Part shown: positions 9,594-42,155 of the stretch, piece after piece
Numbering within the stretch: the first letter of the stretch is position 1
Layout: the number at the start of each line of letters is the position of its first letter
Position numbers and translations under genes: made by a program
Assembly: GCA_004379135.1 (NCBI GenBank)
Contig: NBNI01000006.1
Location: forward strand, 249,160 to 313,159
Origin: Acidimicrobiales bacterium mtb01
GTDB lineage: Bacteria; Actinomycetota; Acidimicrobiia; Acidimicrobiales; Ilumatobacteraceae
Reading direction: 5' to 3'
DNA length: 64,000 bases
The notes under the pieces: generated by a model
Databases searched by the model: none
Told to the model about the DNA's origin: nothing
The model's input: only the letters and a program-made list of their open reading frames with translations

Positions 9594-9698
9594 GCATTCA
9601 GTGTCGTCAATCGAGGCACATCTGTCATCACAATCGGTGAGAACCGTCTACACCATTTTCTTAGACGATTAAGAAGGTCGCTCCAGGTGACGGCGACT

Positions 9699-10289: not shown

Positions 10290-10381
10290 TCCTTCGCCGT
10301 CCCGGGTGGTCCGGCGAGCCCAGGGTGACCAAGGGGTGTGTCAGAGAACAGGTGTTCGATTCTCGAACATCACGCAGATCG

Positions 10382-11914: not shown

Positions 11915-11959
11915 CCCTCCAGTCTCGCCCCTCGTCCCGGCACCTCCTACCCTCGGAAC

Positions 11960-12412: not shown

Positions 12413-12442
12413 GCTGACGTTCGATCGGGCAGGAGAACGCTC

Positions 12443-14517: not shown

Positions 14518-14574
14518 CCAGAACTAAGGTCGGTTCGAAGGCCGACCCCACGGCCAACTTGAGGGAGGAAATCC

Positions 14575-15828
14575 ATGCTCAGCAAGACCCGCGGGTCGCT
14601 CGGGCTCGCCCTCGTCGCAGCGCTTGGCATCGGCCTCGTCGCATGCGGCGGTGATGACGAGTCGAGCGAACCGGCAGCAACAGAAGCCCCGGCCGCATCC
14701 GAGGCTCCGGCCGGCAGCGACGCTCCGGCTGGTACCGACGCACCGGCCCAGGGCGCAACGCTCGCCAACTTCACTCCGTGGAGTGCCGACGCACCCGTCA
14801 TCGATTGCCGTCCCGAGGAAGGACCGCTGAAGGCGGCCTGGATCTACGTCGGCCCCACCAACGACGGTGGCTGGACCCAGCAACACGACGCCAGCCGTCA
14901 AGCCGTGCAGGATCACTTCGGTGACGCCGTCGAGACCACCTACAAGGAGAACGTGCCCGAAGGGCCGCAGGTTCTCCAGACCATCGAAGACTTGATCGCC
15001 GACGGCAACACCGTCATCTTCGGAACCTCGTTCGGATTCCAGGATGCGTTCGTCGAGGCCGCCGCCGCTCACCCCGACGTGTGCTTCGAGTTCGCCACCG
15101 GTTACAAGGGTGCCGACAACCTGTCGCAGTTCTATGGCGCCGCCGAGGACACCGACTTCCTCGCCGGGATGGCGGCTGGTGCCGCATCGCCCACCGGCAA
15201 GCTCGGCATGCTCGCCTCGTTCCCCATTGGTGAAGTGCTGCGCGGCGTGAACGCGTGGACCATGGGTGCGCGCATGATGAATCCGGACGCCACCGTCAAT
15301 GTGGTGTGGGTCAACAGCTGGTTCGATCCGCCGAACGAGCGCAAGGCCGCCGAAGCCCTCATCGCCGAAGGCATCGACACATTGGGTCAGAAGGGCATCG
15401 ACTCGCCGGCCACCGGCGACGCCGCCAAGGCTGCCGGTGTTCCGTGGGCGGGCTACAACGCCGACCAGAGCGCCAACTACGGCGACGTGTGGTTGACCGC
15501 AACCGAGTACGACTGGACCGTGTACCAGATCCCGCGTCTGCAGGCCATCCTCGACGGCGCCTGGGTTGCCGGCAACTACTACGGCAACCTGTCGGACGGC
15601 TTCGTCAAACTGGCCACGTTCGGTGACCTCGTGACCGAGGAGACGCGCGCCGCGATCCAGGCCGAACTCGAGAAGCTCACGGCCAAGCCGAACTCTCAGT
15701 TCACTGGTCCGATCAACGACAACAAGGGCAATGAAGTCCTCGCCGCTGGTGTGAGCCACACGTTCGAGGAACTCATGAGCATGGCCTACTTGATCGAAGG
15801 TGTCATCGGAGACATTCCGGCGGGCTGA
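14575..15828 (+). CDS. BMP-family ABC transporter substrate-binding lipoprotein
   Basis: 417 aa. The lipobox is LVACGGDD. Basic-membrane-protein family similarity is seen in FGTSFGFQDA and GYKGADNLSQFYG. GAGGGAGG lies upstream. Confidence 0.85.
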   Translation: MLSKTRGSLGLALVAALGIGLVACGGDDESSEPAATEAPAASEAPAGSDAPAGTDAPAQGATLANFTPWSADAPVIDCRPEEGPLKAAWIYVGPTNDGGWTQQHDASRQAVQDHFGDAVETTYKENVPEGPQVLQTIEDLIADGNTVIFGTSFGFQDAFVEAAAAHPDVCFEFATGYKGADNLSQFYGAAEDTDFLAGMAAGAASPTGKLGMLASFPIGEVLRGVNAWTMGARMMNPDATVNVVWVNSWFDPPNERKAAEALIAEGIDTLGQKGIDSPATGDAAKAAGVPWAGYNADQSANYGDVWLTATEYDWTVYQIPRLQAILDGAWVAGNYYGNLSDGFVKLATFGDLVTEETRAAIQAELEKLTAKPNSQFTGPINDNKGNEVLAAGVSHTFEELMSMAYLIEGVIGDIPAG

Positions 15829-28874: not shown

Positions 28875-29411
28875 TCAACTGCGTCCGGTTCGCAGCCGAT
28901 CGACTCTCGGCTCACGGTCGCCCACGATCCGAGCCAATCGATTCGACGCCACGGCACGGTCCAGACTCCCCGACTCGGCCATGGCGTCGATGTCGACCCA
29001 GTCCTTGGGGCGGTCGAACAGCGCCTTGAACACAGCCAGATCCTCGGCGCAGAGGATCGTCACCGACCGACCGGCGAACGGAACCTGACGACACCGCTCG
29101 CCCACGTCGTGGTGGAAGTCGCTGGCGACGAAGAACAGGTCGATCGGCGTGTCGTCCCACATCAACCGCACTTGATCGCTCGTCAGAACTTCGTGTCGAC
29201 TCTCATGTCCGACCACCACACCTTCGGGAAGTGCGTTGAACACCACATCAACCGCCGAGGCTCGGACGAAGACGTTCACATCGATGTCGCGCGTACCGCG
29301 CGGCTCGGCCGTGGCGTAAGCCAACGCGAAGGCTCCACCGAATGCCCACGGCACGTCGGCACGATCGAATGCCTCGGCGACCGCCAGGATCTTGTCGACG
29401 AGAGTCGTCAC
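28875..29411 (-). CDS. nucleotidyltransferase-fold protein (AbiEii/MNT-like putative toxin)
   Basis: About 178 aa. The NTase signature is WAFGGAFALAYATAEPRGTRDIDVNVFV. GTG 29411 overlaps the upstream stop as GTGA; the track start, TTG 29414, is in frame. Confidence 0.7.
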   Translation of the reverse strand: MTTLVDKILAVAEAFDRADVPWAFGGAFALAYATAEPRGTRDIDVNVFVRASAVDVVFNALPEGVVVGHESRHEVLTSDQVRLMWDDTPIDLFFVASDFHHDVGERCRQVPFAGRSVTILCAEDLAVFKALFDRPKDWVDIDAMAESGSLDRAVASNRLARIVGDREPRVDRLRTGRS

Positions 29412-29695
29412 CAACGAGCCTCGGCCAGCGGGCGTGGTTGATACGGCAGAGCTTCAGCCAGGTGGAGCACCTGCTCGAGTCGATGGCCCAGCAACCACGG
29501 GTCGCCCACCCGATCGAATCGGATCTCGTAGCCGATTGCCGACACGATTCGTCCCGCAACCTCCAACGAGGGTTGACGGCGTTCGCACTCATATGCGCTG
29601 ACGACCGTCGACGGGATCCCGACCCGCCGGGCGACCTCGGCCTGCGTCAGACCGGCTCGCACCCGCAGATCCCGAAGAGTCCGACCTCGAAACAT
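29408..29695 (-). CDS. XRE-family HTH protein (putative cognate antitoxin)
   Basis: 95 aa from ATG 29695. The HTH is LRVRAGLTQAEVARRVGIPSTVVSAYECERRQPS. Confidence 0.75.
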   Translation of the reverse strand: MFRGRTLRDLRVRAGLTQAEVARRVGIPSTVVSAYECERRQPSLEVAGRIVSAIGYEIRFDRVGDPWLLGHRLEQVLHLAEALPYQPRPLAEARW

Positions 29696-29764
29696 GACGT
29701 CAGGATACTGAATATGAGCGTTTCCGCTTAGTTCACGCTCCTCCCAAATCGCGAACCGTCCCAG

Positions 29765-29808
29765 AAATGTTTCGAGGGCCAGCCTCACGGCTGACCCTCG
29801 AAACATTT
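29765..29808 (-). terminator. long hairpin abutting the att core; probably the ancestral terminator of the tRNA gene, displaced by the island
   Basis: A perfect 14-bp stem (aaatgtttcgaggg / ccctcgaaacattt) plus an inner 5-bp stem (cagcc / ggctg). It starts directly after the duplicated tRNA 3' end. Confidence 0.55.
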
Positions 29809-29824
29809 GGTGGCGGGGAGGGGA
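29807..29824. repeat. attL-type direct repeat (18 bp, TTGGTGGCGGGGAGGGGA)
   Basis: Identical to 42078-42095, which is the 3' end of the tRNA gene. Confidence 0.85.
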
Positions 29825-29864
29825 ACCGTCGCTCCGTTCCTCCCAAATCCGCAGAGCCGCGATC

Positions 29865-29904
29865 AAAATGGAAATGCCGCCCCGAAGGGCGGCATTTCCA
29901 TTTT
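29865..29904. terminator. perfect 18-bp hairpin with a 4-nt loop at the island's left end (bidirectional-terminator-like)
   Basis: aaaatggaaatgccgccc cgaa gggcggcatttccatttt. The A-tract and T-tract are part of the arms. Confidence 0.6.
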
Positions 29905-29967
29905 GGTGGGGTATGCACCGAAGTCGGAAGCCCAGCGTGGGGGCGGGTTCCGGGTCGGTGTGGCGGG

Positions 29968-30001
29968 GATTTCTAACTGAAAATCGACAGATTTCTAACT
30001 G
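29968..30001. repeat. two copies of the 12-bp direct repeat gatttctaactg with 22-bp phasing
   Basis: Copies lie at 29968-29979 and 29990-30001. This is an A/T-rich spot between attL and the first island gene, and a candidate recombinase arm site or regulator site. Confidence 0.6.
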
Positions 30002-30036
30002 CGAGCCGGCGGAGCGTCTGACCGTCGGTTGGTCCC

Positions 30037-30771
30037 TTACTTGTATAGCCCCCGGGCACGGCTGATGGCTTCTCGCCGGATTCGGCTGCGCAGGGCGGGT
30101 TCCTCGAGTGCCTTCTGTCTCGTGGAGTTGATGTCGTCTTCACGCAGCCATTGCAGACAGCTGCCGGCTGCGACGGCCGAATTCCCGCCAGCCCCGATCG
30201 CGGTCTCGACCCAGTTCTCGATGATCTCGATCTCTGCGTCCGCGCTCTCGATGGTGGTCGCGAAGTCGAACACAGGAATGTTCGTACGCGTCAGGTAATG
30301 AGTGAGCCGCTGGAGTGTGAGAGCGATGCCGAAGAGCTCCATCGACGCGATGCGCTTCGCCGGGGCGAGAGATTCCGCATCGACTACCGCGAGCACGTCG
30401 AAGTCGGCTTCCCAGCATTCGACTCTTTCGTCGTCTGGGGTGCCTGTCGGTGGCTGGAGTTCCGGCAGGACCATTTTGTTGAAGTGCCGATCGGTCGGCC
30501 AGATGTTTCGCTTGCTCCCCTTGTTGACCACCGCGACCAGGATCCCGTTGCGCGTGTTGAGGCCGTCGGGGCGCATCGTGCAGGGATGTTGTAAAACGAT
30601 GAAGGTTCGTTCCTCAGGGTTCTGCACCTTGGTGGTGACGTTGATCGCCGCCCGAAAGACGTCACCTGTGGTCACCGGACGATGCAACGGCGTTTCCTCA
30701 CCTCGCCCACGCCAGATCTGCGCGGCCCAGCTGCTGGCCGGGCCCTCGGGGGCATCGAGGTCGACGGGCAT
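30037..30771 (-). CDS. island orphan protein C (244 aa), function unknown
   Basis: Last gene of the three-gene operon, starting 9 nt after the upstream stop. No motif I recognise. The N-terminal half is beta-rich (TTGDVFRAA...FIVLQHPCTMR...ILVAVVNK). Confidence 0.7.
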   Translation of the reverse strand: MPVDLDAPEGPASSWAAQIWRGRGEETPLHRPVTTGDVFRAAINVTTKVQNPEERTFIVLQHPCTMRPDGLNTRNGILVAVVNKGSKRNIWPTDRHFNKMVLPELQPPTGTPDDERVECWEADFDVLAVVDAESLAPAKRIASMELFGIALTLQRLTHYLTRTNIPVFDFATTIESADAEIEIIENWVETAIGAGGNSAVAAGSCLQWLREDDINSTRQKALEEPALRSRIRREAISRARGLYK

Positions 30772-30780
30772 CGTTGCGGG

Positions 30781-31464
30781 TCAGTCCCGGTCGTTGGTGT
30801 CTTTGGAGACGATGGACAGGACACCGTCCGACGCGCGGACAACTTTGAAGTCGCTCCGGTACTTCTCGCGCCAGTTCGGTTCGAACTCCGTGAGGGCATC
30901 CTCGGGTGAGATGTGCGTCGAGACCAGCTCGAGCGCGAGGTCCTCACGGTTGCCGGCAATCAGATCGATGCTCGTCAACGGGCATCCGGTGACGATCGGC
31001 ATCTCCGCCCACGCTGCCGGGTCGACGGTCAGGTGGGTGTCGCTCATCTGTTCGAACAGCGCGTTCAACAACGCGAGGCGTTTGCGGTTCTCTCCCGTGG
31101 CCGGTTCGCCTTTGCGCCACTTTTGAACCGCCGGCACCGAGACCCGCGACATTCTCGCGATGTCTCGCCAAGAGAACCCGAGGTCACTCAGCCGCGAGAG
31201 AAGTTCGGTGACCGCCAATCCCTGCAGCGCCTGGGCGGCTTCGTCAAGGCTTCGTCGACCGAGAACACGATGAACCTCAGTGGCGTCGCTTGCAAGGAAC
31301 GACACCTGACTGCGGATGAGCGCCGCTTTGCCGCTGAGCTCATAGTAAGAGGTCTGCGTCGTCGAGATCGACGGCGCCGGACTGACCTCGAGTGCGCCGG
31401 TCGGCTCGTCAACATCCGTGACAACCCCCGAACCAGCGGTCTTCACCATCGAGTACACACTCAT
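30781..31464 (-). CDS. island multidomain HTH protein B (227 aa)
   Basis: ATG 31464 has GGGGGAGG 6-7 nt upstream and overlaps the upstream stop as ATGA. The central HTH is FSWRDIARMSRVSVPAVQKWRKGE. The flanking N- and C-terminal domains are unassigned. Confidence 0.75.
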   Translation of the reverse strand: MSVYSMVKTAGSGVVTDVDEPTGALEVSPAPSISTTQTSYYELSGKAALIRSQVSFLASDATEVHRVLGRRSLDEAAQALQGLAVTELLSRLSDLGFSWRDIARMSRVSVPAVQKWRKGEPATGENRKRLALLNALFEQMSDTHLTVDPAAWAEMPIVTGCPLTSIDLIAGNREDLALELVSTHISPEDALTEFEPNWREKYRSDFKVVRASDGVLSIVSKDTNDRD

Positions 31465-32252
31465 TCGAACCTCCCCCGCATTGCTTCCCGCATCCGTGGC
31501 GTGACCAGTTTCTCGAACATCTCCGTCAACGGCCGGTGCAGCACGTCGACTTTCTCCAGGACCGCGCCAGCCGAGTACTCCGGAACGTGACCCTCGGCCA
31601 CCCAGTAACTGTCGAAGTCCAGCAGGAAACACTCCGGGTTCGCCGGAAGGTTCACACGCCGCAAAGCCCCGTTCGGATCGACCGCAGGAGCCTCCCTCGG
31701 CCCGTAACGGAGAACCACCGAAGTGCCCTCAGGCGTCACGAACTGTGTCAAGCCTTGCCAGGCAGTCGCAGTGATGTCGTCGATCCCCAGACCCGACGGT
31801 CCGATCAGTTCCGGCACCACCCACTCCCGCCAATCCGTCGAACTGGACGTGACCGCCGGGCGGATCTCGTCGATGAAGCGCAAACCGACCCTCTCAACAC
31901 CACCCGGCGCCAGAACCGTCTCGACCACCGCGACCGCCCGTTCGACCAGCGCCCGGAAACGCTCGTAGCCGGCGTAAGCCGTCGTCTCGACAATCGCCCT
32001 GTCCGGCCAGAAGCTCACACTCGTTGTCTTCTCCCGGTTCCTGAGACGCAGGATCTCGACCGGCTCGACGTGCTGCTGACCACCAGGACCGAGATCTAGA
32101 CGCTGCAGCACCTCGGTCGACCCCAACGGCAGGACATCCTTGAGTTCCGTCCGGAGCCGCCGGAACCCCTCGGCACCCTGGTCAGCGAGCGGAAACCTGA
32201 TCTCACACACAACCAGCGCCAACGGCGCGTTCGGGTAGACCTCGCTGCTCAT
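31461..32252 (-). CDS. island protein A (263 aa), TIGR04255-like uncharacterised family (assigned from memory)
   Basis: ATG 32252. The N-terminus is MSSEVYPNAPLALVVCEIRF, followed by VGLRFIDEI. The longer track ORF (to 32546) overlaps the divergent gene and is rejected. Confidence 0.7.
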   Translation of the reverse strand: MSSEVYPNAPLALVVCEIRFPLADQGAEGFRRLRTELKDVLPLGSTEVLQRLDLGPGGQQHVEPVEILRLRNREKTTSVSFWPDRAIVETTAYAGYERFRALVERAVAVVETVLAPGGVERVGLRFIDEIRPAVTSSSTDWREWVVPELIGPSGLGIDDITATAWQGLTQFVTPEGTSVVLRYGPREAPAVDPNGALRRVNLPANPECFLLDFDSYWVAEGHVPEYSAGAVLEKVDVLHRPLTEMFEKLVTPRMREAMRGRFE

Positions 32253-32402
32253 ACCGCCATCATAGGGCCCGGGAGCAACAACCAAAACAGCAACCACGAC
32301 GGAAACTGTCCGGGTGCTGACCCAAGGGGCAAGCGACCGGTAGAAACCGGACCGGTTCAGCCTTTCGTTGCGGCGACCCTCCATCCCGGGACGATCCCGC
32401 GT

Positions 32403-32705
32403 ATGACACCCCTGGAAAACCCGGTCGGCGTGAGTCAGTTCCTCGACAGCTTTGCGGCCGCATTGGAGGACGGTCTCGGCGTCCCCGCCGCTTTCGCCAA
32501 CGCCGCCTCGGCCAACGGCTTCGACCACACCACGATCGAAGCGCATCTCACGCTCCGGTCGCTCGACGGAAAGCTCACCTGCTCCTCATTGCTCGACGGG
32601 CTGGTCAGCGACGAAATACTCACGGTCATCCGCACCGGAGAGAAGCAGGCAGACGTGATCGGTCACCTCCGTCTCGCCGCGGTCAACGCGCTCCCCGGCA
32701 CCTGA
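32403..32705 (+). CDS. island hypothetical protein (100 aa)
   Basis: ATG start with strong third-position G/C bias in this frame. It is divergent from the three-gene operon. No motif I recognise. Confidence 0.55.
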   Translation: MTPLENPVGVSQFLDSFAAALEDGLGVPAAFANAASANGFDHTTIEAHLTLRSLDGKLTCSSLLDGLVSDEILTVIRTGEKQADVIGHLRLAAVNALPGT

Positions 32706-32882
32706 TCAACTCATCCGCGTCAAAACTCCGGTGCAACCCGGAACTCCGCAGTATCCCTCCGGTTCCTCGAGCATCCTGCCGATACACCTCTCGGTTCGGC
32801 ATCCTCGATTGCCGCAGGACCGGACGTTGCAGCGAAACACGTGCCGAGAGTTGCACTCGGGGCACTTCTCGTCAGTCACCAT
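32706..32882 (-). CDS. 58-aa Cys-rich (8 Cys) zinc-ribbon-like protein, absent from the ORF track
   Basis: My own translation: MVTDEKCPECNSRHVFRCNVRSCGNRGCRTERCIGRMLEEPEGYCGVPGCTGVLTRMS. ATG is the complement of 32880-32882 and TGA the complement of 32706-32708. Third-position G/C is about three quarters by eye. It lies 56 nt downstream of the 197-aa gene. Confidence 0.5.
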   Translation of the reverse strand: MVTDEKCPECNSRHVFRCNVRSCGNRGCRTERCIGRMLEEPEGYCGVPGCTGVLTRMS

Positions 32883-32938
32883 CAGTTCAGATTACTGCGC
32901 CGTCGCGGTGAGCCAGATCAGGTCATCCTCAATCCCGA

Positions 32939-33532
32939 CTACTGATCTAGTGGTGTAAGTGTCCCATGCCGGTCACGGTGCCAGGCCCGGTTGGCACTGT
33001 CGGTGAACCGGACAGCGAGGAGCAACCGGCTGACCGCCAGTTCTGACAGTTCGACTGCGGATACGTAGGAGAACAAGGTGTGGCCCGCCTGCTCCTCAGG
33101 CACGTCAGCGACGTCGAGCACTCGTTCAGGTTCGAGTTTGCAGACCGCAACCTCGCTCGGAGCGACGACCGGTCGCATCGTCGTAAGGATCAGCACGTCA
33201 CCTTTGAACCACTCCAGCTGGACCTTGTAGATCGGCTGGCTGGAACGATTCGCGATCAAGCCGTTGACCGAGACGTTCGTGTACATCCACGCGGACCCGG
33301 CGCCGTCCTTACGTTCAGGTTTGACAACCGCCGGCTCTGCCCACGCAGCGACCTGTGATGCCTGGAGAGCGCGAGTCTCTGCTTCGTGGCGCTCGTCGCG
33401 TTTGCGTTCGATCTCGACGATGTCCCGGGCCCAGCGCCCCGCGAGAACTGCAGCGATGACAGCTGCGACTGTCGCGACGGCCGTGAGCCACGTCGCCACG
33501 TCCCCGTATTGAACACCGTCAAACGACATCAC
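32939..33532 (-). CDS. island membrane-anchored protein (197 aa), function unknown
   Basis: One N-terminal TM helix (VATWLTAVATVAAVIAAVLAG), a charged helix, then a beta-rich domain. Confidence 0.65.
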   Translation of the reverse strand: MMSFDGVQYGDVATWLTAVATVAAVIAAVLAGRWARDIVEIERKRDERHEAETRALQASQVAAWAEPAVVKPERKDGAGSAWMYTNVSVNGLIANRSSQPIYKVQLEWFKGDVLILTTMRPVVAPSEVAVCKLEPERVLDVADVPEEQAGHTLFSYVSAVELSELAVSRLLLAVRFTDSANRAWHRDRHGTLTPLDQ

Positions 33533-33559
33533 GATGGCGATCGTATTTCACGGGTGTGT

Positions 33560-33814
33560 ATGCAATCTGGAGACACCTCGTCACAGTGGCGGGTCCCGTC
33601 CACCGACCGAAAGGCCCACCTGTTGCAACCACCCTCCCCGGACCCGTACCTCACGATGAAGGAAGTTCTCGCCGTGGTCGGAGTCTCACGTTCGACGTTC
33701 TCCAAGTGGCGCAGCGAAGGTCGAGCTCCCGAGATGATCCGCCTTCCCAATGGGGAGCTGCGAATCCGTCTGAGTGTGCTCGAGGCGTGGTTCGATTCTC
33801 TACCTGACGCCTGA
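33560..33814 (+). CDS. excisionase/AlpA-type HTH protein
   Basis: YLTMKEVLAVVGVSRSTFSKWRSEGRAPEMIRLPNGELRIRLSVLEAWF matches the Xis/MerR-type HTH_17 pattern. The start is uncertain (ATG 33560, TTG 33623 or ATG 33656). Confidence 0.7.
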   Translation: MQSGDTSSQWRVPSTDRKAHLLQPPSPDPYLTMKEVLAVVGVSRSTFSKWRSEGRAPEMIRLPNGELRIRLSVLEAWFDSLPDA

Positions 33815-33822
33815 TCGGCCGG

Positions 33823-36144
33823 TTACGCCGCGTCGACGTAGAGCAGTTGCTGGAAACCGCAGAACACTTGGCGGACCTCTGACGCATCGGCGCCGAGCAC
33901 GCCGAGCGCTTCCGCGACCCCTCCGTACTTGATCTCAAGTAGCGGAGGGAGTTTCTCGACCGCGAGCTCCTCGACTCCTTCGCTGACGTACTGGTCAAGC
34001 ACGAACTCGATGAAGTCGCGTTGACGTTCCCCGAACTGTACCCCGATCCGCCGGCGAGCTTTTGTAGCGCGGGACTCGCGAGTTCGCGGTGCCGAGTTGA
34101 AACTGATGTAGGCGAGCACGTCGTAGAGGTCGCTGTCGCGTGCCGAGATCAGTTCCTGGACCTTCTCGAGGTTCTCGACTCCGAAGCCTTTCTCGCCGAG
34201 TTTTGATAACAGCTCGATCCGAGTCAGTGGGTCTCCCCAGATGCGGCGAAGGTCGTCCTCGTCCTTGTAGAACTGCGGAAGTTCCCCGAACAGCCACTTG
34301 AGGAACTCCTCGGCGCTCATCTGCTTGCCGTCAGGTCCCCAGAACGTTGTCTTCATCATAAAGTCGATCTCCCGGCTCGATCCTCCGAGCTCTATGCGGA
34401 TCTTCTTCGGTCGTTCCGGTCCCGGTCCGACCGGCTTGCCCGGTGTCGGGTTGCCGTTCCCGTTGCCGGGTTTCGGTGTCGCCGGTACGGGTTCCTCCGG
34501 TGGACCATCCCATTCCGGGTCGTTGAACATCTCGTGGGCCTTCACGAAATCGTAGATCGTGAAGTAGTCCTTGCCGTCGAAGAGTCGCGTCCCTCGACCG
34601 ATGATCTGCTTGAACTCCACCATCGAAGTGATCGGGCGGAGCAGCACGATGTTGCGCACGTTGAGCGCGTCGACACCGGTCGAGAGTTTCTGCGAGGTCG
34701 TCAGGATCGTCGGGATGCTCTTCTCGTTGTCCTGGAAGTTCCTCAGATGCTGGTCACCCAGGTCGCCATCGTCGGCGGTGACGCGCTGGCAGTAGTTCGG
34801 GTCCTTGCTCGTCTTGATCTGGTTGATCAGGTCCCGCACCAGCAGCGCGTGTTCCTGGGTCGCGCAGAACACCAGCGTCTTCTCGTCCTGGTTGATCAGG
34901 CCCATAAAGATCTCGACGCGTCGACGTTCGCGCGCCACGATCTCGATGCGCTTGTTGAAGTCCGGCTCCCCGTAGGTGCGGCCCTCCTCGATGTCACCGG
35001 CGAGCACCTGGTCGCCCGGAGTGAACGTGTACTCGTCGAGCGTTGTCGAGATCTGGCGCACCCGGAACGGGGTGAGGTACCCGTCGTTGATCCCTTCCTT
35101 CAGTGAGTACGTGTACACCGGCTCACCGAAGTACTTGTAGGTGTCGGCGTTCTCGGTGCGCTTCGGTGTCGCCGTCAAACCGACCTGTACCGCCGGTTCG
35201 AAGTACTCGAGGATCCCGCGCCACTCGCTCTCGTCGTTCGCGCCGCCGCGGTGGCACTCGTCGACGATGATCAGATCGAAGAAGTCCTTCGGGTACTGCC
35301 CGAAGTTCGGCGCCGGGTTCCCATCCGCATCGGTGCCGGACATAAATGTCTGGAAGATCGTGAAGAAGATGCTCCCGTTCGTCGGGACCGACCCTTTCTT
35401 ACTCACGTCCCCGGGGCGGATCCGCACCAGTGCATCGTCGTCGAACGCCGAGAACGAGTTGTACGCCTGGTTCGCGAGGATGTTGCGGTCCGCGAGAAAC
35501 AGGATGCGCGGCCGGCGCTGCTTGTCACCCTGGATGTTCCACTTCGACTGAAAGAGCTTCCACGCCGTCTGGAACGCGATGAACGTCTTGCCGGTTCCGG
35601 TCGCGAGCGTCAGAAGGACACGCTTGTCGCCTTTCGCGATCGCACCGAGGACTCGTTCGACCGCGATGTCCTGGTAGTAGCGACCGCCGAACGTGCCGTT
35701 GCGCGACTCGAACGGCACATCCGTCAGTTCGTGCTCAAGCGTGCTCCCCGCCTCGAACGTCCGCCGCCACAGGTCATCCGGCCCCGGGAACGACGCGATC
35801 TCGCCTTCGGTTCCCTCCTCCATATCGACCTCGTAGAAACCCAGACCGTTCGTCGCGTAGGTGAACCGCACCGAGAGTTTCTCCGCGTACTCCTTGGCCT
35901 GCCCAAGACCTTCCGTCAGCGGCTTGCTCTCCGCTTTCGCCTCGATCACTGCGAGCTTGCGGTTGCGGTAGTAGAGGACGTAGTCCGCGATCAGCTGCTT
36001 CTGCGGACGTCCCACTCCTTCGATGCGCCCCGGTGCGATCACGTACTCGCGGGTCACCCGCGAATGCTCGACCTTCCCCCAGCCGGCAGCGACCAGCGCC
36101 GGGTCGATCAGATCGCCCCGAGTGTCTGCTTCGTTGCGCGCCAC
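33823..36144 (-). CDS. hsdR: type I restriction enzyme R subunit
   Basis: 773 aa. The HSDR_N-like nuclease N-terminus is EADTRGDLIDPALVAAGW...VIEAKA. Helicase motifs are LATGTGKTF and IIVDECHRG (DEAH), with an EcoEI-R-like C-terminus. The GTG start overlaps the hsdS stop by 1 nt. Confidence 0.93.
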   Translation of the reverse strand: MARNEADTRGDLIDPALVAAGWGKVEHSRVTREYVIAPGRIEGVGRPQKQLIADYVLYYRNRKLAVIEAKAESKPLTEGLGQAKEYAEKLSVRFTYATNGLGFYEVDMEEGTEGEIASFPGPDDLWRRTFEAGSTLEHELTDVPFESRNGTFGGRYYQDIAVERVLGAIAKGDKRVLLTLATGTGKTFIAFQTAWKLFQSKWNIQGDKQRRPRILFLADRNILANQAYNSFSAFDDDALVRIRPGDVSKKGSVPTNGSIFFTIFQTFMSGTDADGNPAPNFGQYPKDFFDLIIVDECHRGGANDESEWRGILEYFEPAVQVGLTATPKRTENADTYKYFGEPVYTYSLKEGINDGYLTPFRVRQISTTLDEYTFTPGDQVLAGDIEEGRTYGEPDFNKRIEIVARERRRVEIFMGLINQDEKTLVFCATQEHALLVRDLINQIKTSKDPNYCQRVTADDGDLGDQHLRNFQDNEKSIPTILTTSQKLSTGVDALNVRNIVLLRPITSMVEFKQIIGRGTRLFDGKDYFTIYDFVKAHEMFNDPEWDGPPEEPVPATPKPGNGNGNPTPGKPVGPGPERPKKIRIELGGSSREIDFMMKTTFWGPDGKQMSAEEFLKWLFGELPQFYKDEDDLRRIWGDPLTRIELLSKLGEKGFGVENLEKVQELISARDSDLYDVLAYISFNSAPRTRESRATKARRRIGVQFGERQRDFIEFVLDQYVSEGVEELAVEKLPPLLEIKYGGVAEALGVLGADASEVRQVFCGFQQLLYVDAA

Positions 36145-37316
36145 TAGAGCTCACCTCGGAATGCCGCCTCAAGAACCGACTGGCGTAGTTCAGATAACAG
36201 CTTCAAACGTCTTGCAACGTTCATTCTGAGTCGATGGACCTGCTCCTCTAGCGTCCGTACCCGGGAAGCAAAGCGTTCCTGGACGTCCCTTGGTGGCACC
36301 GGGATTGACACGCCTGCCACCAATGCGGAATTCAGGTTCTGGACGGTAGAGCCTTGAGCTCGCAGGCTGAACTCCGAGTACATCGTTGTCGAACCCAGCA
36401 AGTAGTAGAGATAGTCCTGATCAAAACGAGAGTTCTTGTCTTGAAGAACGAGCCAACCGTCGTGAATGCATCCGTCTGTCTGCATTATGTAGGGGCGACC
36501 AAAGCTCATCGAGTTTGACAAGAGGAAGTCTCCCGGACCGACTTTCCGTGACCGTTTCACTCCCGCCGGCTTGATCTTCTCAGAAGTCTCATAGATGTAC
36601 TTCCGGCTCGCGCTTGCGTCACCGATCTTCACCCAGTTGACGCCGTCCGCGTCGTCAGTAATGTACTCAGAGATGGGCCGAGGTGACCCTCCCCGAGCCA
36701 CTTCCAGAACGTCTCCAATGAGTTTCTCCTCATAGCGCTCACTCAGATCACGGATGGCAGCTGACACTTCGCTATCAAGTGCCTCGCTCGCCCGGAGCTC
36801 TGCTGAACGGTAAGTGCGTTCAAGACAGTCGGCCCTTTCGAGGAGTTGATCAAGTTTCGCTGCAATGCGCTTCTGTTCGGTAAGAGACGGAACAGGGATC
36901 TCGAACTCACGAAGTGCTTGAGGGCTGATTCGCGGGAGAGTTGCGCCGGTGGATTTCTCGGTGGCCTCCGAGATAACCCTTGGGCTACGAAGCCAGTGGA
37001 AGAGGTAGTCACGGTCTAGTTCAGTGGACGGGGCAACGGTGATGATGTCGGTGCTACACACTCCAGGGTGAGTGGGCCGGGCGACCTTGGCGAGATATGG
37101 GCGGAGTTTGCCAAACAGAACGTGTGTCGTATCGAACCGATACTTGTTGCTTCGCAGATCTGTTGCAGCGACGGCCCCGAGATTGATCAGCGCGCCGTCA
37201 CTTCCGATGTTCTCGAGACCGACGTAGACGTCTGATTCACGCAGTTGCTCAGGACGTACCGACTCACCGTCAATGTTCGCCACCTCGCCAAGCTTCTTGA
37301 TTGGTGTACTGCTCAC
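36144..37316 (-). CDS. hsdS: type I restriction-modification specificity subunit
   Basis: 390 aa from GTG 37316, which overlaps the hsdM TGA as GTGA. It has two target-recognition domains. The conserved spacers are PVPSLTEQKRIAAKLDQLL and IPVPPRDVQERFASRV. This is the most A/T-rich stretch of the window. The 671-aa track ORF is an artefactual extension. Confidence 0.9.
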   Translation of the reverse strand: MSSTPIKKLGEVANIDGESVRPEQLRESDVYVGLENIGSDGALINLGAVAATDLRSNKYRFDTTHVLFGKLRPYLAKVARPTHPGVCSTDIITVAPSTELDRDYLFHWLRSPRVISEATEKSTGATLPRISPQALREFEIPVPSLTEQKRIAAKLDQLLERADCLERTYRSAELRASEALDSEVSAAIRDLSERYEEKLIGDVLEVARGGSPRPISEYITDDADGVNWVKIGDASASRKYIYETSEKIKPAGVKRSRKVGPGDFLLSNSMSFGRPYIMQTDGCIHDGWLVLQDKNSRFDQDYLYYLLGSTTMYSEFSLRAQGSTVQNLNSALVAGVSIPVPPRDVQERFASRVRTLEEQVHRLRMNVARRLKLLSELRQSVLEAAFRGEL

Positions 37317-38824
37317 GACAGCAGACCCTTGATGTTCGCTATGAGTGCTGCTGCTTCTGCGTCGAGAGATTCGAGTTCGGCGAGGATCTCCGCAGGTGTG
37401 CCGAGCTGTTTGGGGCCTTCGGCGTTGGGGTTGCGCACAGTGAGGTCCCAGGTTTTCGGGTCGACGTCCTTGATGTCGACGGTCCAGGAGTTCGGTCCGT
37501 CGGTCTTGGTTTTCGAGAGCGAGACGAACTCCGCGAGGTCGTCGTCGTTGAGTGGGCTGGTCTTGCCGAAGTTCCGTCCCGGGTTGAGCTGGTAGTACCA
37601 GATCTTCTTGGTCGCGGTGCCTTTCTCGAAGAAGAGAACGATCGTGCGCACGCCGGCACCTTGGAAGGTGCCCCCGGGGAGGTCGAGGATGGTGTATAGG
37701 TTGCAGCTTGTCAGCAAGTGCTTTCGCAGTTCGACCGAAGCGTTGTCGGTGTTGGACAGGAAGGTGTTCTTGATGACCACGCCGGCGCGGCCCTTGACCT
37801 TCAAGATCTTGATGAAGTGTTGCAGGAACAGGTACGCGGTCTCGGATGACTTGATCGGGAAGTTCTGCTGCACTTCCCCGCGTTCCTTGCCGCCGAACGG
37901 CGGGTTCGCCAGGATGACGTTGTGGCGGTCTTTCTCTTGGATCTCGTCGATGTTCTGCGCGAGCGTGTTGGTGTGCAGGACGTTCGGTGCGTCGATGCCG
38001 TGCAGGATCATATTCATCACCGCGATGACGTACGCGAGTGACTTCTTCTCCCGGCCGTAGAACGTCTTCTCCTGCAGAGTCTTGAGGTTCGATGTAGTGA
38101 GCCCGGTCTTGGCCGAGAGATGTTCGAAGGCTTCGCAGAGAAAGCCTGCCGACCCGCACGCCCCGTCGTAGATCGTCTCGCCGATCTGGGGGTCGACGAC
38201 GTCGATGATCGCGCGGATCAACGGGCGTGGTGTGTAGTACTCGCCGCCGTTGCGTCCGGCGTTGCCCATATTCTTGATCTTGACTTCGTAAAGGTCCGAC
38301 AGTTCGTGCTTCTGGACCTGCGACTTGAAGGTGAGCTTGTCGAGCTCGTTGATGACGTCACGCAGGTTGTAGCCGGAGCTGATGCGGTTGCGGATCTCGT
38401 CGAAGATCTCGCCGATCTTGTACTCGATGGTGTTGCTCGCTGCGGCGCGCTGCTTGAAGCCGCGCAGGTATGGGAAGAGTTTGTCGTTGACGAAATCGAG
38501 TAAGTCAGGTCCGGTCTGCTGCTTGTGGTGGTCCGGGCTACCGTCGGTCTTGCGTGGTGCTGCCCAAGTCGTCCAGCGGTACGCCGGTTCGAGGATGTGT
38601 TCGTACTTCTTGCCGGTGAGTGCCGCTTCCTGCGCGCGTGATTCCTCGAGTGCGTCGAGGTACTTGAGAAAGAGCAGCCACGAGGACTGTTCGGTGTAGT
38701 CGAGTTCCGAGGTGCAGCCGGCGTCCTTGTGCAGGATGTCGTCGACGTTCTTGAAGACCTGCTGGTAGCCGTTCGTCGCTACCTTCGCGATGGTTGTCTT
38801 CGATGTCGTTGTCTTGGCCGCCAT
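37313..38824 (-). CDS. hsdM: type I restriction-modification N6-adenine DNA methyltransferase subunit
   Basis: 503 aa. HsdM_N is present. AdoMet motif I is YDGACGSAGFL and motif IV is ILANPPFGG. AAGGAG lies 7 nt upstream. Confidence 0.93.
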   Translation of the reverse strand: MAAKTTTSKTTIAKVATNGYQQVFKNVDDILHKDAGCTSELDYTEQSSWLLFLKYLDALEESRAQEAALTGKKYEHILEPAYRWTTWAAPRKTDGSPDHHKQQTGPDLLDFVNDKLFPYLRGFKQRAAASNTIEYKIGEIFDEIRNRISSGYNLRDVINELDKLTFKSQVQKHELSDLYEVKIKNMGNAGRNGGEYYTPRPLIRAIIDVVDPQIGETIYDGACGSAGFLCEAFEHLSAKTGLTTSNLKTLQEKTFYGREKKSLAYVIAVMNMILHGIDAPNVLHTNTLAQNIDEIQEKDRHNVILANPPFGGKERGEVQQNFPIKSSETAYLFLQHFIKILKVKGRAGVVIKNTFLSNTDNASVELRKHLLTSCNLYTILDLPGGTFQGAGVRTIVLFFEKGTATKKIWYYQLNPGRNFGKTSPLNDDDLAEFVSLSKTKTDGPNSWTVDIKDVDPKTWDLTVRNPNAEGPKQLGTPAEILAELESLDAEAAALIANIKGLLS

Positions 38825-38982
38825 TGGTCTGCTCCTTTTGGGAGCACTGTTCCGCGGCCGCCGCTTGCGGCATTTGTCCCCGTCTCTGGCTCCGATCGGC
38901 GTTCGACAACCCGGCTCGTACCGGGACGTTTCTGCGCCTTGCGAAAGCCTATGACTCGGGTGAGACAGGGTGTGTTTCTCTT

Positions 38983-39333
38983 CTAAGACAGTGTGAGTTT
39001 CAGCTCGGCACCGTCATCAAACACCGGGATGATCTGGACGCCGAGTTCTACCGCCCATTTCATTGCGTCACCGATGTCGATCGGGGTCTGGCCGTGGAGT
39101 TTGCGGGTCAGCCAGGCCGGGTCCTCCCCGATCCGATCCGCCAGGTCGGCAGTGGTCTCGCCAGCGGCGCGGAGTTCGAGCATCACCGCCACCGCGGCCC
39201 GGTGCTGAAAGATCGCCCACGCGGTTTCGGTTGGGTCGAGCGGGCAGGGGTCTGCCCATTGTGGGGTTGGGATTCGCCCGAAATGGCGGGGGTTCGCACA
39301 GATTCGGGCGGGTTTGAACCTCGGCTTTCCCAC
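38983..39333 (-). CDS. small XRE/Cro-like HTH protein upstream of hsdM (start uncertain)
   Basis: The HTH-like stretch is AVAVMLELRAAGETTADLADRIGEDPAWLTRKLHGQTPIDIGDAMKWAVELG. The N-terminal part of track ORF 38983..39444 runs through an A/T-rich promoter-like region, so I chose an internal GTG. Confidence 0.5.
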   Translation of the reverse strand: MGKPRFKPARICANPRHFGRIPTPQWADPCPLDPTETAWAIFQHRAAVAVMLELRAAGETTADLADRIGEDPAWLTRKLHGQTPIDIGDAMKWAVELGVQIIPVFDDGAELKLTLS

Positions 39334-39336
39334 CCA

Positions 39337-39366
39337 TTGATAATGGCATACCAACAGGTGTATTTT
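39337..39366 (+). promoter_or_regulatory. candidate promoter for the recombinase/transposase-like gene pair
   Basis: TTGATA, an 18-nt spacer, then TATTTT. It sits in a locally A/T-rich divergent intergenic region. Confidence 0.3.
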
Positions 39367-39376
39367 ACGCCTTTTC

Positions 39377-40378
39377 TTGCTATCTTCGAGTGCTCGTGAA
39401 TGCCCTGTGGGCACCTTGACCGGAGTGACCGCCGCCGACACCACCTCGACGTTCTCAGCCTCGACCTCTCAGCCGACCGATCCCGGATGCTCGCCGGGAT
39501 ATGTCGGGATTGTCGCGACGTACGACCCGCGGAAGTCGAAGTTTGCGCTCTGCGCCCCAGCGGAGTGGGAGGTCGTCGCCCCGGTGGTCCGCGCCACGGT
39601 CGCCAGGTTGGAGGGTTTCGCGGATCGTGGGCTCCGGCCGTATCTCACCGCGATGACCCGGCTCTCGGTCTGGGCTCTCCGGGAGGGCCTCCCTCTCGTG
39701 CCGGCGTCTCTTCTCTCTGATCCGGTAATCGAGGCGCACGTCGCGACCCTTGATGCGAATGCCGGGACTTTCCGTTCGCAGTTGCGGCGTCTCGCGGCCG
39801 CGAACGGTGTGGCACTCGGGTCGACCGCTGTCGGTTACGCCCGGCCCGGTTACTCCGCTCCGTACACGCTCGACGAGGTGCGTGCGCTGCTGTTGTTCGC
39901 ATCGTCACTCACAAATGAGATCCGTCGTCGGCAGCTCACCGGTCTGCTGCTTCTCGGCGCGGCGTGCGGTTTCTCCCGTGCTGATCTCCGGGGAGTATGC
40001 AATGGCGACGTGCATCATCACAGTGGTGTCCGTTATGTGCGGACCCGGAATCGTTGCACCCCGATCCTCGAGGATTTCTCCGCTGACTTCGATGCGTATC
40101 TGTCGTGGTGTGGGGATGAACCGTTTGTCGGGGTGAAGCCCGGCGCGAACATCACCGACCGGATGGTTTCCTGGGTCGGTGAGCGTGCCGGTCTGCCGCG
40201 ACTCTCTGCCGACCGGCTGCGGGCGTTCTTCGTTGTCGAGCATCTGCGTCGCAACACGCCGCTTCCCTCGCTGCTCGCATACTGCGGTTTCGCAAGCCTT
40301 GAGGCGCTTGACCCTTATCTCGCGTTTCTTCCCGCGTCGACCCCACTTTGCGGGTCTTGTGAGGAAGGTTCGCTGTGA
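39377..40378 (+). CDS. degenerate tyrosine-recombinase-like protein
   Basis: 333 aa. The layout is recombinase-like: LLLGAACGFSRADL (Arg I), ADRLRAFFVVEHL in place of HxLRH, and CGFASLEALDPYL (candidate Tyr). Both His positions appear substituted. The start is uncertain (TTG 39377 or downstream GTGs). Confidence 0.5.
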   Translation: MLSSSARECPVGTLTGVTAADTTSTFSASTSQPTDPGCSPGYVGIVATYDPRKSKFALCAPAEWEVVAPVVRATVARLEGFADRGLRPYLTAMTRLSVWALREGLPLVPASLLSDPVIEAHVATLDANAGTFRSQLRRLAAANGVALGSTAVGYARPGYSAPYTLDEVRALLLFASSLTNEIRRRQLTGLLLLGAACGFSRADLRGVCNGDVHHHSGVRYVRTRNRCTPILEDFSADFDAYLSWCGDEPFVGVKPGANITDRMVSWVGERAGLPRLSADRLRAFFVVEHLRRNTPLPSLLAYCGFASLEALDPYLAFLPASTPLCGSCEEGSL

Positions 40379-41868
40379 ACACGGCTGACGTCAGGCGCGC
40401 AGAGCGCATCATCGACGCTTCCGGTCTCGTTGCGATGATCGAGACGCGGATTGCCGCGACTAGGCGGGTCTCTGGTCGTCCCCGCGAACTCTCGGTGCGA
40501 ACGCTTCTGGTTGCGCTGCTGCTGTTGTCCCAGTCCGGTTCGATGCATCTGATTCGTGTCCCGGGGATACTCAACGCTCTCGATCTGCCGACGCGCAAGC
40601 GGCTCGGAGTCGTTCGTACAGGTGGTGTCACCCGCCGCCAGGTTGAGCGCCTCTTCAACTTGGTCGCGCACGCTCTCGAGGGTTCGGCTCACGCGCATTT
40701 CGATTCCTTCTGTGATCTCTTGCTGCAGGCCACGATCGATCCGGCGTGCGCGGAGACGAGTTCGATCGCTGTTGACGGAACGAGCGTCGATTCCTGGGGA
40801 CGTCGCCGGCGGCGCGTCGACGTTGCGGGCCAGGTCTCTTGGGTGTCTTCGGATACCGATGCAGAGTGGCGTCGCAAGAGCAAAGACAACCCGTGGAAGC
40901 GTCCGGTGTTCGGCTACGACCTCACCGTCGCGGTGACCGTTCCTGAAATTGACGGCCCTGATGTGCCGCTTGCCGCGCGTTCGATGCGCTTCCGCGGCGC
41001 GAACCGTCAGAACGTCGCGATGGGGCGCGCGGTCGTGAAGGAAGTTGCCCGTCAGCAGGGTGTGCTCGGTGATGTGATCGCGGACCGCGAGTACACCTCG
41101 ACGATCGATGGGCGTGACTTCGTGCTCCCGGTTCGTGCCCTCGGTGGTGAGCCGGTGTTCGAACTGACACAAGCCCAGCTCGGTGCGCGTGGCACCACGC
41201 ACGGCGCGGTGATGATCGACGGTCATCCGTTCTCTCCGTCGGTGCCGCCGGCGCTGCAGCTGCTCACACCGCCGCCGCCGGGTGCGCCGTGGGCAGATGT
41301 TGCTGCGTACCAGCAGAAGGTCGCAACGCGCGAGAAGTACGCGCTCGTCCCGCACGGTGCTCGCAAAGCGAACGGCTCGCAGGTGTTCCAATGTCCGGCT
41401 TCGGCTGGGAAGCTCTCGTGTCCGTTGGTTGCCTCCTCAAAAGCCAGTGCGTTCCCGGCGGTGCTCGCCCCCGCGAGTGCAGCACCTGGCTCGGTGTGCG
41501 CCAAGAAGTTCACGACTTTCCAAGCAACCGATGCGCCGCTCTCGCAGCGCGACTTGTTCGGATCCGCGAAGTGGTATGCGTCGATGTCACGGCGCTCGCG
41601 TGTCGAAGGGTTCTTCGGGAACGTCAAGAACGAGGCGTGCGAGAACCTTCGTCGCGGCACGATTCGTGTGCGTGGTCTCGTGAAGACCGGGATGCTTGTT
41701 GCGTTCGCAGTCGCGAGCACCAACCTGCGTCTCGCGGACTCCTTCGCGAAGCGCACACCGAACACGCCGGCGAAGAAACGTGGCCGTCCGAAGAAGACCG
41801 GTGTCGTCAAATACGCCGACGTCTTCACCGCGGACGCTGCCGCGAACGCCCCGCCGTCTGCCGCCTGA
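40375..41868 (+). CDS. IS4-superfamily DDE (YREK-motif) transposase-like protein
   Basis: 497 aa. GTG 40375 overlaps the upstream stop as GTGA, with GAGGAAGG 7 nt upstream. Candidate catalytic residues lie in AVDGTSVDSWG and FGYDLTVAV. The C-terminal YREK-like block is WYASMSRRSRVEGFFGNVKN...RGL. Confidence 0.65.
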   Translation: MNTADVRRAERIIDASGLVAMIETRIAATRRVSGRPRELSVRTLLVALLLLSQSGSMHLIRVPGILNALDLPTRKRLGVVRTGGVTRRQVERLFNLVAHALEGSAHAHFDSFCDLLLQATIDPACAETSSIAVDGTSVDSWGRRRRRVDVAGQVSWVSSDTDAEWRRKSKDNPWKRPVFGYDLTVAVTVPEIDGPDVPLAARSMRFRGANRQNVAMGRAVVKEVARQQGVLGDVIADREYTSTIDGRDFVLPVRALGGEPVFELTQAQLGARGTTHGAVMIDGHPFSPSVPPALQLLTPPPPGAPWADVAAYQQKVATREKYALVPHGARKANGSQVFQCPASAGKLSCPLVASSKASAFPAVLAPASAAPGSVCAKKFTTFQATDAPLSQRDLFGSAKWYASMSRRSRVEGFFGNVKNEACENLRRGTIRVRGLVKTGMLVAFAVASTNLRLADSFAKRTPNTPAKKRGRPKKTGVVKYADVFTADAAANAPPSAA

Positions 41869-41936
41869 CTCGCACCGCACTCTGATGCGCGCTCGAGGTT
41901 CTCCTCGCACGCCCTGACACTGATCACACCGCACCT

Positions 41937-41959
41937 CGGCCGCCTTCGGGCGGCCGTTT
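41937..41959 (+). terminator. intrinsic terminator after the transposase-like gene
   Basis: cggccgcc ttcg ggcggccg, followed by ttt. Confidence 0.55.
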
Positions 41960-42006
41960 CGCATCCACCGGACGGTCCGTTGCGACAAGGCGACCTCGAG
42001 AAAGCA

Positions 42007-42042
42007 GAAGTCCCGGTTGCTGTTTCCAGAAACCGGGACTTC
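42007..42042. terminator. 12+3-bp hairpin 36 nt from the tRNA 3' end (island-borne replacement terminator or att-proximal structure)
   Basis: gaagtcccggtt g ctg tttc cag a aaccgggacttc. On the minus strand it is followed by tgctttctc. Confidence 0.45.
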
Positions 42043-42078
42043 GGTGCTCGATGCACACCCACTTGGGTGCACACCTCT

Positions 42079-42155
<77 letters not shown>

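Follow-up and report, generated by a model that had tools for sequence, protein, structure and literature searches.

This analysis concerns an operon of three minus-strand genes, designated A, B and C, which lies in a 64,000-nucleotide stretch of DNA from Acidimicrobiales bacterium mtb01 (contig NBNI01000006.1, positions 249,160 to 313,159 of the forward strand), referred to below as the window. An earlier annotation of this DNA, made from its letters and open reading frames (ORFs) and called here the sequence-only reading, had put the operon forward as an orphan system of defence type. Up to now, A-B-C has been found to constitute a conserved, self-contained cassette, present in unrelated genomic contexts that include plasmids and islets bounded by attachment-site (att) repeats. 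The cassette is composed of a TIGR04255 family protein (A), a multidomain helix-turn-helix (HTH) protein (B) and a protein whose N-terminal domain is modelled with a MazF/Kid-type fold (C). The designation as an orphan operon was wrong, as homologous triads are present in at least 75 other species.

Layout, conservation and cis-elements of the A-B-C cassette

The genes and cis-elements of the cassette in the window are the following:

31461-32252, minus strand: gene A, TIGR04255 family protein of 263 amino acids (aa) with the N-terminus MSSEVYPNAPLALVVCEIRF; proposed sensor or accessory role
30781-31464, minus strand: gene B, HTH protein of 227 aa; proposed autorepressor/antitoxin
30037-30771, minus strand: gene C, protein of 244 aa, MazF/Kid-like beta domain at the N-terminus and helical domain at the C-terminus; proposed toxic effector
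32278-32296, minus strand: candidate operator, direct repeats TGGTTGC (32296-32290) and TGGTTGT (32284-32278), 12 nt apart, over the -35 region
32259-32264, minus strand: -10-like hexamer TATGAT, 6 nt 5' of the ATG of A
29864-29905: terminator hairpin 132 nt past the stop of C, with a perfect 19-bp stem, a UUCG loop and A4/U4 flanks

All three genes are confirmed to be real coding genes. Each of A, B and C has a GC content at third codon positions (GC3) of 0.77-0.78 and at second codon positions (GC2) of 0.47, and in a comparison with a 94%-identical relative the differences were found mostly at the third codon position, with synonymous changes exceeding non-synonymous ones. The coordinates, sizes and strands given by the sequence-only reading all hold on the sequence, and so does the tight packing that it described: the ATG of B shares bases with the TGA stop of A in an ATGA overlap, and 9 nt (CCCGCAACG) separate the TGA of B from the start of C, with no GGAGG or Shine-Dalgarno sequence in this gap. 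Longer upstream ORFs of 361 aa and 283 aa were rejected as over-calls; the TIGR04255 model aligns from residue 6 of A, and the homologues of B begin at the same methionine as B.

The distribution of the cassette was examined using a genome scan anchored on the HTH peptide of B, which gave 113 matches. From these the best 80 loci were taken for analysis, hardly any species occurring twice. All 80 belong to Actinomycetota, with Acidimicrobiia and Actinomycetes represented, and two of them are on Pseudarthrobacter plasmids. Searches of the ORFs with hidden Markov models (HMMs) revealed A directly upstream and C directly downstream of B in almost every locus, the order being always A-B-C, and a k-mer-limited search with C returned two clusters, both encoded downstream of A- and B-like genes. 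Of the 76 loci that could be evaluated, 55 retain both A and C in intact form, while C alone is lost or broken in 13, A alone in 1 and both in 7; in all of the four loci without A, C was found to be broken or absent as well. Stop-to-stop spacing of 625-711 nt for A-B and of 686-988 nt for B-C leaves no intergenic room, and the pairwise identity matrices of A, B and C correlate with r of about 0.92. When 1143 neighbour genes were clustered, A, B and C alone were conserved, with the next cluster present in at most 8 loci, and no fourth gene, the divergent 100-aa ORF included, proved to be conserved among the 80 loci. Thus, the expectation that A, B and C travel together is borne out by the fixed order, the spacing and the proportion of intact loci.

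The same holds for the earlier impression that these genes match no described system. PADLOC-DB 2.0.0 contains no model for A, B or C, and recognition by Pfam and PHROGs is limited to the HTH of B, which is matched weakly. Profile searches of the PDB with the families of A, B and C, and with one of the distant third genes described below, retrieved no sequence relative, and no E. coli counterpart of A-B-C is present at the DNA level.

Two rearranged forms were also encountered. P0021, a 283-aa protein present on 5 contigs, has residues 1-124 of A joined to residues 63-216 of B; it is the sole Rosetta-stone fusion found, and is probably an in-frame deletion product and not a functional fusion. 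At locus L014 (8898-10822), B is followed by a pair of genes encoding 424 aa and 219 aa at the place where C is missing, and this pair, which recurs in 4 loci, looks like an insertion sequence (IS) element replacing C.

Upstream of A, a 17-nt core (TGGTTGCTGTTTTGGTT) is identical in locus L003, whose proteins are about 50% identical and whose flanking DNA is unalignable. In a degenerate form, RGTT[GAT][CT]-N5-7-RGTT[GAT][CT], the repeats occur in the 90 nt preceding A at 60 of 75 loci, as compared to a background of 7 occurrences in 1.99 Mb counted on both strands. In the simplest reading, the repeats would represent an operator for B that overlaps its own promoter, such binding being predicted from the sequence. 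A -10 hexamer just before the start codon is the geometry of leaderless actinobacterial transcripts, and the location of TATGAT 6 nt before the ATG of A hence implies a leaderless transcript with a predicted start. In 47 of 75 related loci the start codon is likewise preceded, at a distance of 5-8 nt, by a TAnnnT motif. A scan with the sigma-70 consensus revealed no full -35/-10 promoter. At the other end of the operon, the terminator hairpin has a folding energy of -39.1 kcal/mol (z -5.8), none of 200 shuffled sequences folds as well, and it lies inside a 94%-identical block that is common with the related metagenome contig L001.

Predicted folds and conserved residues of the three proteins

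Gene C belongs to a family with 444 representatives in a full HMMER scan. C has no match in Pfam at E<=1, none of 96 C-family members has one at E<=0.1, and across four family libraries the sole match of C is an insignificant PHROG (E 0.15), with PADLOC giving nothing. An AlphaFold2 (AF2) model, obtained from the 96-sequence alignment with a predicted local distance difference test score (pLDDT) of 95.3 and a predicted template modelling score (pTM) of 0.91, consists of a beta-rich N-terminal domain (approximately residues 20-145) followed by five helices (approximately residues 146-243). Upon comparison of this model with the PDB by Foldseek, the top 49 matches are all MazF, Kid, YdcE or MoxT toxins aligned over about 130 columns, with template modelling (TM) scores normalised to the target of 0.51-0.76, probabilities of up to 1.00 and E-values from 2e-3, while the C-terminal helical domain has no structural match by Foldseek. 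According to the model, the N-terminal domain of C is of the MazF/Kid-type fold, and a faint MazF/CcdB-like look, noticed when only the letters had been read, is thus borne out at the fold level. Residues P32, G36, D37, C64, R140, G148, Q154, R162 and E180 are invariant in the 96-sequence alignment and R31, H62, P63, R67 and R155 are nearly invariant, with Cys64 placed by the model at the N-terminus of a short helix.

Among known systems, C shares its fold with the toxins of MazEF and PemIK (Kis-Kid). By eye and in the hhalign register, the order of strands is also alike (GDV, a hydrophobic strand and LVAxV), a plausible register with B. subtilis MazF aligning GDV on GDV and RPVLVIQ on the strand preceding HPC. 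Additional likenesses are the presence of a translationally coupled DNA-binding gene directly upstream of C, a conserved operator candidate in the promoter and the carriage on plasmids and islands. However, C has neither a PemK_toxin match in Pfam nor significant profile similarity, has its own set of invariant residues and is extended by a helical domain of some 100 aa; the HTH protein B, multidomain and 227 aa long, contrasts with the small MazE and Kis, and A-B-C has an obligatory third gene, A. MazF toxins are known to be partnered by antitoxins with a variety of DNA-binding folds (PMC3879964), and MazF-like domains act as defence effectors elsewhere (PMC13069673). An analogy may be drawn with GajC of type II Gabija, in which a MazF-like effector domain is likewise combined with extra helical material in a multi-gene anti-phage system (PMC13069673), although the partner GajB is a UvrD-type helicase and the MazF-like domain of GajC is split by an inserted helical segment.

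Gene B, whose homologues form 91 clusters, encodes a protein whose N-terminal region is variable, whose HTH spans approximately residues 85-125 and whose C-terminal domain is conserved (W152, P156 and W198). In the window protein, residues 92-122 match the Pfam families HTH_23 (21.2 bits, cutoff 24.6) and HTH_3 (14.2 bits, cutoff 23) below threshold. At E<=0.1, HTH_23 is matched by 41 of 42 family members and HTH_3 by 32 of 42, with a best E-value of 6e-7, and the assignment of B as a protein with a central HTH is upheld by the former. With respect to the antitoxins of the Xre-RES, ParST and MbcTA systems, the B-like middle genes of the distant triads weakly match Xre-like-HTH (PF20432) with E-values of 4e-4 to 0.03, and the W...P...TPIDL segment after the HTH of B resembles DUF2384 by eye. 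Assignment of this segment to DUF2384 was nevertheless rejected, as none of the 42 members matches PF09722 and no PDB relative, MbcA, ParS and Xre included, was obtained; B-containing triads further differ from these systems in having no RES or ParT toxin.

Gene A was assigned in the sequence-only reading to TIGR04255, and this is supported by an end-to-end match to the NCBIfam model of 132 bits, above the cutoff of 30, with residues 6-258 aligned on model positions 2-251 of 252. A is hence a full-length member of a family that NCBIfam describes as 'sporadically distributed' and uncharacterised, and the NCBI Prokaryotic Genome Annotation Pipeline (PGAP) labels its homologues 'TIGR04255 family protein'. 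No mention of TIGR04255 or its synonyms was found in the literature searched; nothing was matched by A in Pfam and PHROGs, and PADLOC gave PDC-S13 alone at an insignificant E-value of 0.033. The AF2 model of A (pLDDT 93.5, pTM 0.90) predicts two tandem beta-alpha-beta(3-4)-alpha units with a topology like that of TATA-binding protein (TBP) and S-adenosylmethionine decarboxylase (AdoMetDC). Foldseek searches of the PDB with this model gave AdoMetDC/prozyme with E 9e-5 (TM 0.28, root-mean-square deviation 18 A) and TBP with E 5e-3, and the top match in BFVD (E 1.5e-8, TM 0.45/0.56) is to an unnamed protein of viral origin, viral TBPs being weak. Residues E17, R73, R121, R125, E129, R182, D212 and D214 are invariant in the A family, and so many invariant Arg, Glu and Asp residues suggest a specific binding or catalytic surface. 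An internal sequence repeat was considered and rejected, as the comparison of the two halves of A by hhalign is insignificant (E 0.045).

Genomic context, mobility and distant triads

In the window, A-B-C is accompanied by the following features:

29807-29824: distal island boundary, att-like repeat, 18-nt copy of the tRNA-Met 3' end
42078-42095: proximal island boundary, tRNA-Met 3' end; the gene, identified by ARAGORN, is at 42079-42155 on the minus strand
33823-36144: hsdR, with its stop 1571 nt from the start of A
36144 to about 37316: hsdS
37313-38824: hsdM
39377-41868, plus strand: two overlapping transposase-like ORFs between hsdM and tRNA-Met, the second with a weak DDE_Tnp_1_6 match
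32403-32705, plus strand: u100, a divergent acidic 100-aa ORF with GC3 0.82 and no family match, also beside A in the close relatives L001 and L002

A repeat search revealed that 29807-29824 is an exact repeat of 42078-42095, and this 18-nt tRNA-Met repeat defines an island of 12.25 kb (29825-42078) with A-B-C at its far end. The tRNA island proposed from the sequence is thus real, and within it no recognisable integrase is present. A complete hsdMSR system of type I restriction-modification (R-M), reported to lie about 1.6 kb from the operon, was likewise located (33823-38824) and has the same orientation as A-B-C. In L001, the backbone is about 84% identical to the window, whereas the block at 29774-32680, which comprises u100, A-B-C and the terminator, is 94.4% identical. 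The hsdMSR genes together with the transposase-like ORFs form a 9.3-kb segment that is absent from L001, where the same 17-mer flanks just a 3-kb islet of u100 and A-B-C and where ARAGORN finds no intact tRNA. Since the R-M and transposase genes are absent from L001 and the 17-mer repeats flank the 3 kb alone, the cassette moves or is retained independently of R-M. The 94% block reaches 32680, and u100 is unconserved in the other 80 loci; its membership in the system is doubtful.

HsdM is encoded within 8 kb of the cassette in 6 of the 80 loci and in the window, that is in 7 of 81, and in four loci (L013, L015, L023 and L029) the hsdM start overlaps the C stop. As hsdM would be expected in well under 1% of random 16-kb windows, by an estimate from typical genome sizes, this association appears real but modest. 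The near-identical upstream DNA of L013, L015 and L029 makes them look like one transferred element, leaving about five independent events. An enrichment of the cassette near defence genes is thus possible; a close relative carries the cassette without R-M. Among 140 immediate neighbour proteins, 5 type I methyltransferases, 3 PIN proteins, 3 DUF4268 proteins, 2 integrases and several transposases were counted. As to the architecture of the shared element, in L013 (Galactobacter), L015 (Propionicimonas) and L029 (Kocuria), at about 7100-15500, the genes form an overlapping A-B-C-hsdM-hsdS-hsdR string, seen as far as hsdM in L029, which points to recent cross-order horizontal transfer of the triad with a type I R-M element.

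Triads of the same layout were also found outside Actinomycetota, in five other phyla or classes including Proteobacteria, Cyanobacteria and Deinococcota. Using tblastn of A against plasmid and phage records, TIGR04255 genes with 24-26% identity were obtained in Vibrio, Meiothermus, Sinorhizobium, Gloeocapsopsis and an 'Acinetobacter phage' contig, each followed by a gene for an HTH protein of 156-197 aa and then by one for a protein of 234-278 aa without a family match; in phage records, A was found on two 'Acinetobacter phage' contigs alone, and these are bacterial-looking. Taking the third gene of Vibrio as a query led to plasmids of Acinetobacter baumannii, Gloeocapsa and Robbsia, with TIGR04255 and HTH genes upstream in each. 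B and the middle genes of the distant triads are homologues, with 95.9% and an E-value of 6e-9 in hhalign. The third genes of these triads have no match in Pfam or PADLOC, and for the distant components as a whole PADLOC gives nothing beyond HTH-level RmrA matches. A significant relation between C and the distant third genes could not be established by hhalign (E 0.16-0.36), the best local alignment pairing the invariant Cys. In C as in the distant third genes, an invariant Cys closes a hydrophobic strand (H-P-C in C, S-x-x-C-D in the distant genes) and an R...R..(F/V)P segment is present, and their homologous origin is possible on the basis of these sequence features. Around the distant triads, integrases, IS elements and PIN proteins were found along with DNA methyltransferases and a SLATT protein. 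SLATT domains have a known link to conflict systems, and on a plasmid of Gloeocapsa PCC 7428 (L096) a SLATT-domain gene (737-1228) is located directly upstream of the triad.

Some further observations relate to neighbouring genes and to annotation. In the window, 290 nt downstream of hsdR, an ORF of 197 aa (32939-33532, minus strand) has a transmembrane helix at its N-terminus and matches no family; it could encode an R-M-associated or abortive-infection (Abi)-like membrane protein. Just outside the att repeat, an XRE-type HTH ORF (29408-29866, minus strand) overlaps by 7 nt a small nucleotidyltransferase gene (28875-29414) with a weak AbiEii/DUF6036 match; this pair at 28875-29866, which looks like a second pair of toxin-antitoxin (TA) type, is replaced by different genes in L001. 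On the Rhodococcus pyridinivorans plasmid pNAPH (L085), the C homologue in RefSeq is 150 aa long (6169-6621), while an open frame at 5956-6621, with an ATG 6 nt past the B stop, encodes a full-length C of 221 aa (C-family HMM E 2e-72), and hence the RefSeq start is probably mis-called.

Interpretation of the cassette and its alternatives

On balance, A-B-C is probably a tripartite module of TA or abortive-infection type, with C as the effector, B as autorepressor and antitoxin and A as a third partner that would act as sensor, stabiliser or co-antitoxin. What points to such a module is the occurrence of a mobile and patchy cassette with coupled genes and a candidate operator, the position of an HTH gene before a MazF-fold gene, the presence on plasmids and att-bounded islets, the occasional fusion to R-M genes and the marked tendency of C to be inactivated first. 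The TA or Abi logic that the sequence-only reading had suspected is in keeping with the operator, the coupling, the plasmid and island carriage and the preferential decay of C. Judged from sequence and genomic context, a function of A-B-C in phage defence is plausible.

In the mechanism proposed, A, B and C are co-transcribed, apparently leaderless, from a promoter with GGTTRY direct repeats one helical turn apart at -35, and are translationally coupled. B would bind the repeats via its HTH and thereby autoregulate the operon, and B, alone or with A, would keep C inactive in a complex. Loss of the element, phage infection or a signal perceived via the conserved charged surface of A would disturb this complex and set C free, and growth would be arrested, either by RNA cleavage or by a different chemistry dependent on Cys64.

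In tripartite TA systems the third component modulates the toxin-antitoxin pair. A-B-C resembles the toxin-antitoxin-chaperone (TAC) system HigB-HigA with a SecB-like chaperone, omega-epsilon-zeta, PaaR2-PaaA2-ParE2 and HipBST in having three genes that include a DNA-binding regulator and a protein with a toxin fold. It differs from them in that no components are homologous, the order is accessory, HTH and toxin, and the place of the third component is taken by a TIGR04255 protein, whose two-repeat, TBP/AdoMetDC-like fold is not known from any TA system. Thus, the kind of system is known, that is a TA-like conflict module with a MazF-fold component, and what is new is the combination of TIGR04255, a multidomain HTH protein, a Cys-bearing MazF-fold protein and GGTTRY operator candidates, for which no match was obtained in the literature searched. 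New candidate TA and defence cassettes are common.

Several points weigh against the assignment as a TA or Abi module. With regard to C, the Foldseek E-values are modest (2e-3), and C had to be rejected as a MazF (PF02452) at the sequence level, since hhalign gives probabilities of 3% with B. subtilis MazF and 1% with E. coli MazF. The catalytic residues R25, located in the beta1-beta2 loop, and T48 of B. subtilis MazF fall on variable columns of the 96-sequence C alignment in what is a low-confidence register. Because these catalytic Arg and Thr positions are unconserved in C, a MazF RNase activity is not implied, and the chemistry of C may well be other than MazF-type RNA cleavage. The modelled fold of A has no close relative among known structures and provides no functional handle, with TM values of at most 0.29 to PDB entries. 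Anchoring the genome scan on B conceals any loss of B, and assembly errors in metagenome-assembled genomes could inflate the C-first decay, though A and C should suffer equally from them. As to the context, the cassette shows a modest association with defence genes, in which some of the events are not independent; at 12 of 60 loci a tRNA or tmRNA gene lies no more than 8 kb away, close to the number expected by chance, and at 6 of 60 the distance is 1.2 kb or less; and the cassette is rare in viral sequence collections, C having no match in 50,697 phage records and IMG/VR yielding 4 loci.

A broader version of the TA/Abi assignment can be put forward tentatively, as a possibility that is less likely than not: A-B-C and the distant triads would form a pan-bacterial TIGR04255-HTH-X class of immune or addiction modules, in which A would sense a ligand of infection or stress and control, together with the HTH protein, a MazF-fold effector reused for Cys-dependent chemistry. 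Reuse of the MazF fold for such chemistry would explain both the lost MazF catalytic residues and the Cys common to the third genes of all lineages.

That A-B-C is instead a non-toxic regulatory module is unlikely. B would then be a repressor or immunity-type regulator, as its HTH and conserved operator candidate allow, and A and C would be co-factors in the control of integration, excision or transfer of the host element. Such a role is suggested by pNAPH of Rhodococcus, where the triad is placed between a MobF relaxase and a coupling protein, by the tyrosine recombinases located directly upstream of the triad on the Vibrio and Meiothermus plasmids, and by the cassette of L001 as an att-bounded 3-kb islet. 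However, conservation does not extend past the three genes, integrases account for 2 of 140 neighbours, the island of the window is without a recognisable one, and both the MazF fold and the preferential decay of C would be left unexplained.

The conserved residues could also be accommodated by an enzymatic pair, in which an AdoMetDC/TBP-like A, with its charged residues lining a conserved cleft, and a Cys-dependent C would modify nucleic acid or a small molecule under the regulation of B, without any TA function. The many invariant Arg, Glu and Asp residues of A are in line with this proposal, as are the invariant Cys64 of C with the nearly invariant H62 and R67, the invariant Cys retained after a hydrophobic strand in the distant third genes and the absence of the canonical MazF catalytic residues from C. 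It is nevertheless distinctly unlikely, as no metabolic or modification genes are found in the context, the similarity of A to AdoMetDC is topological only, and the mobile, patchy distribution with frequent pseudogenisation of C fits a conflict module better.

An exchange of roles, with A as the toxic effector and C as an adaptor or antitoxin using a CcdB/MazF-fold binding module, is opposed by the pattern of decay, since loss of A alone was seen in 1 locus versus 13 for C alone, whereas a toxin would be expected to show the reverse. In type II TA operons the antitoxin gene usually precedes the toxin gene, and the HTH gene directly upstream of C conforms to this order; in addition, the MazF fold is a known toxin fold. 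Although A is the sole component recognisably homologous across all sampled phyla and is strongly conserved at many charged positions, and although the third gene is replaced outside Actinomycetota by a family without detectable sequence similarity, such an exchange is very improbable. Finally, it is scarcely credible that A-B-C serves as an accessory of type I R-M, for example as a controller or anti-loss device for hsdMSR, despite the overlap of hsdM with C in four loci and the proximity of co-oriented hsdMSR in the window, because in about 90% of loci no HsdM is encoded at a distance of up to 8 kb, the close relative has a 94%-identical cassette without R-M genes, and three of the four overlapping loci look like one transferred element.

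For TIGR04255, a curated family annotated by the NCBI pipeline, these results provide a context, namely as the first gene of a fixed three-gene cassette, and the members sampled from six phylum- or class-level lineages all head an A-HTH-X triad. Recognition of the cassette would also help to annotate several hundred actinobacterial families now listed as 'hypothetical protein'. If the TA or defence assignment of A-B-C is true, the cassette would represent a new tripartite architecture, with a third-component fold new to TA systems and a MazF-fold effector lacking the MazF active site.

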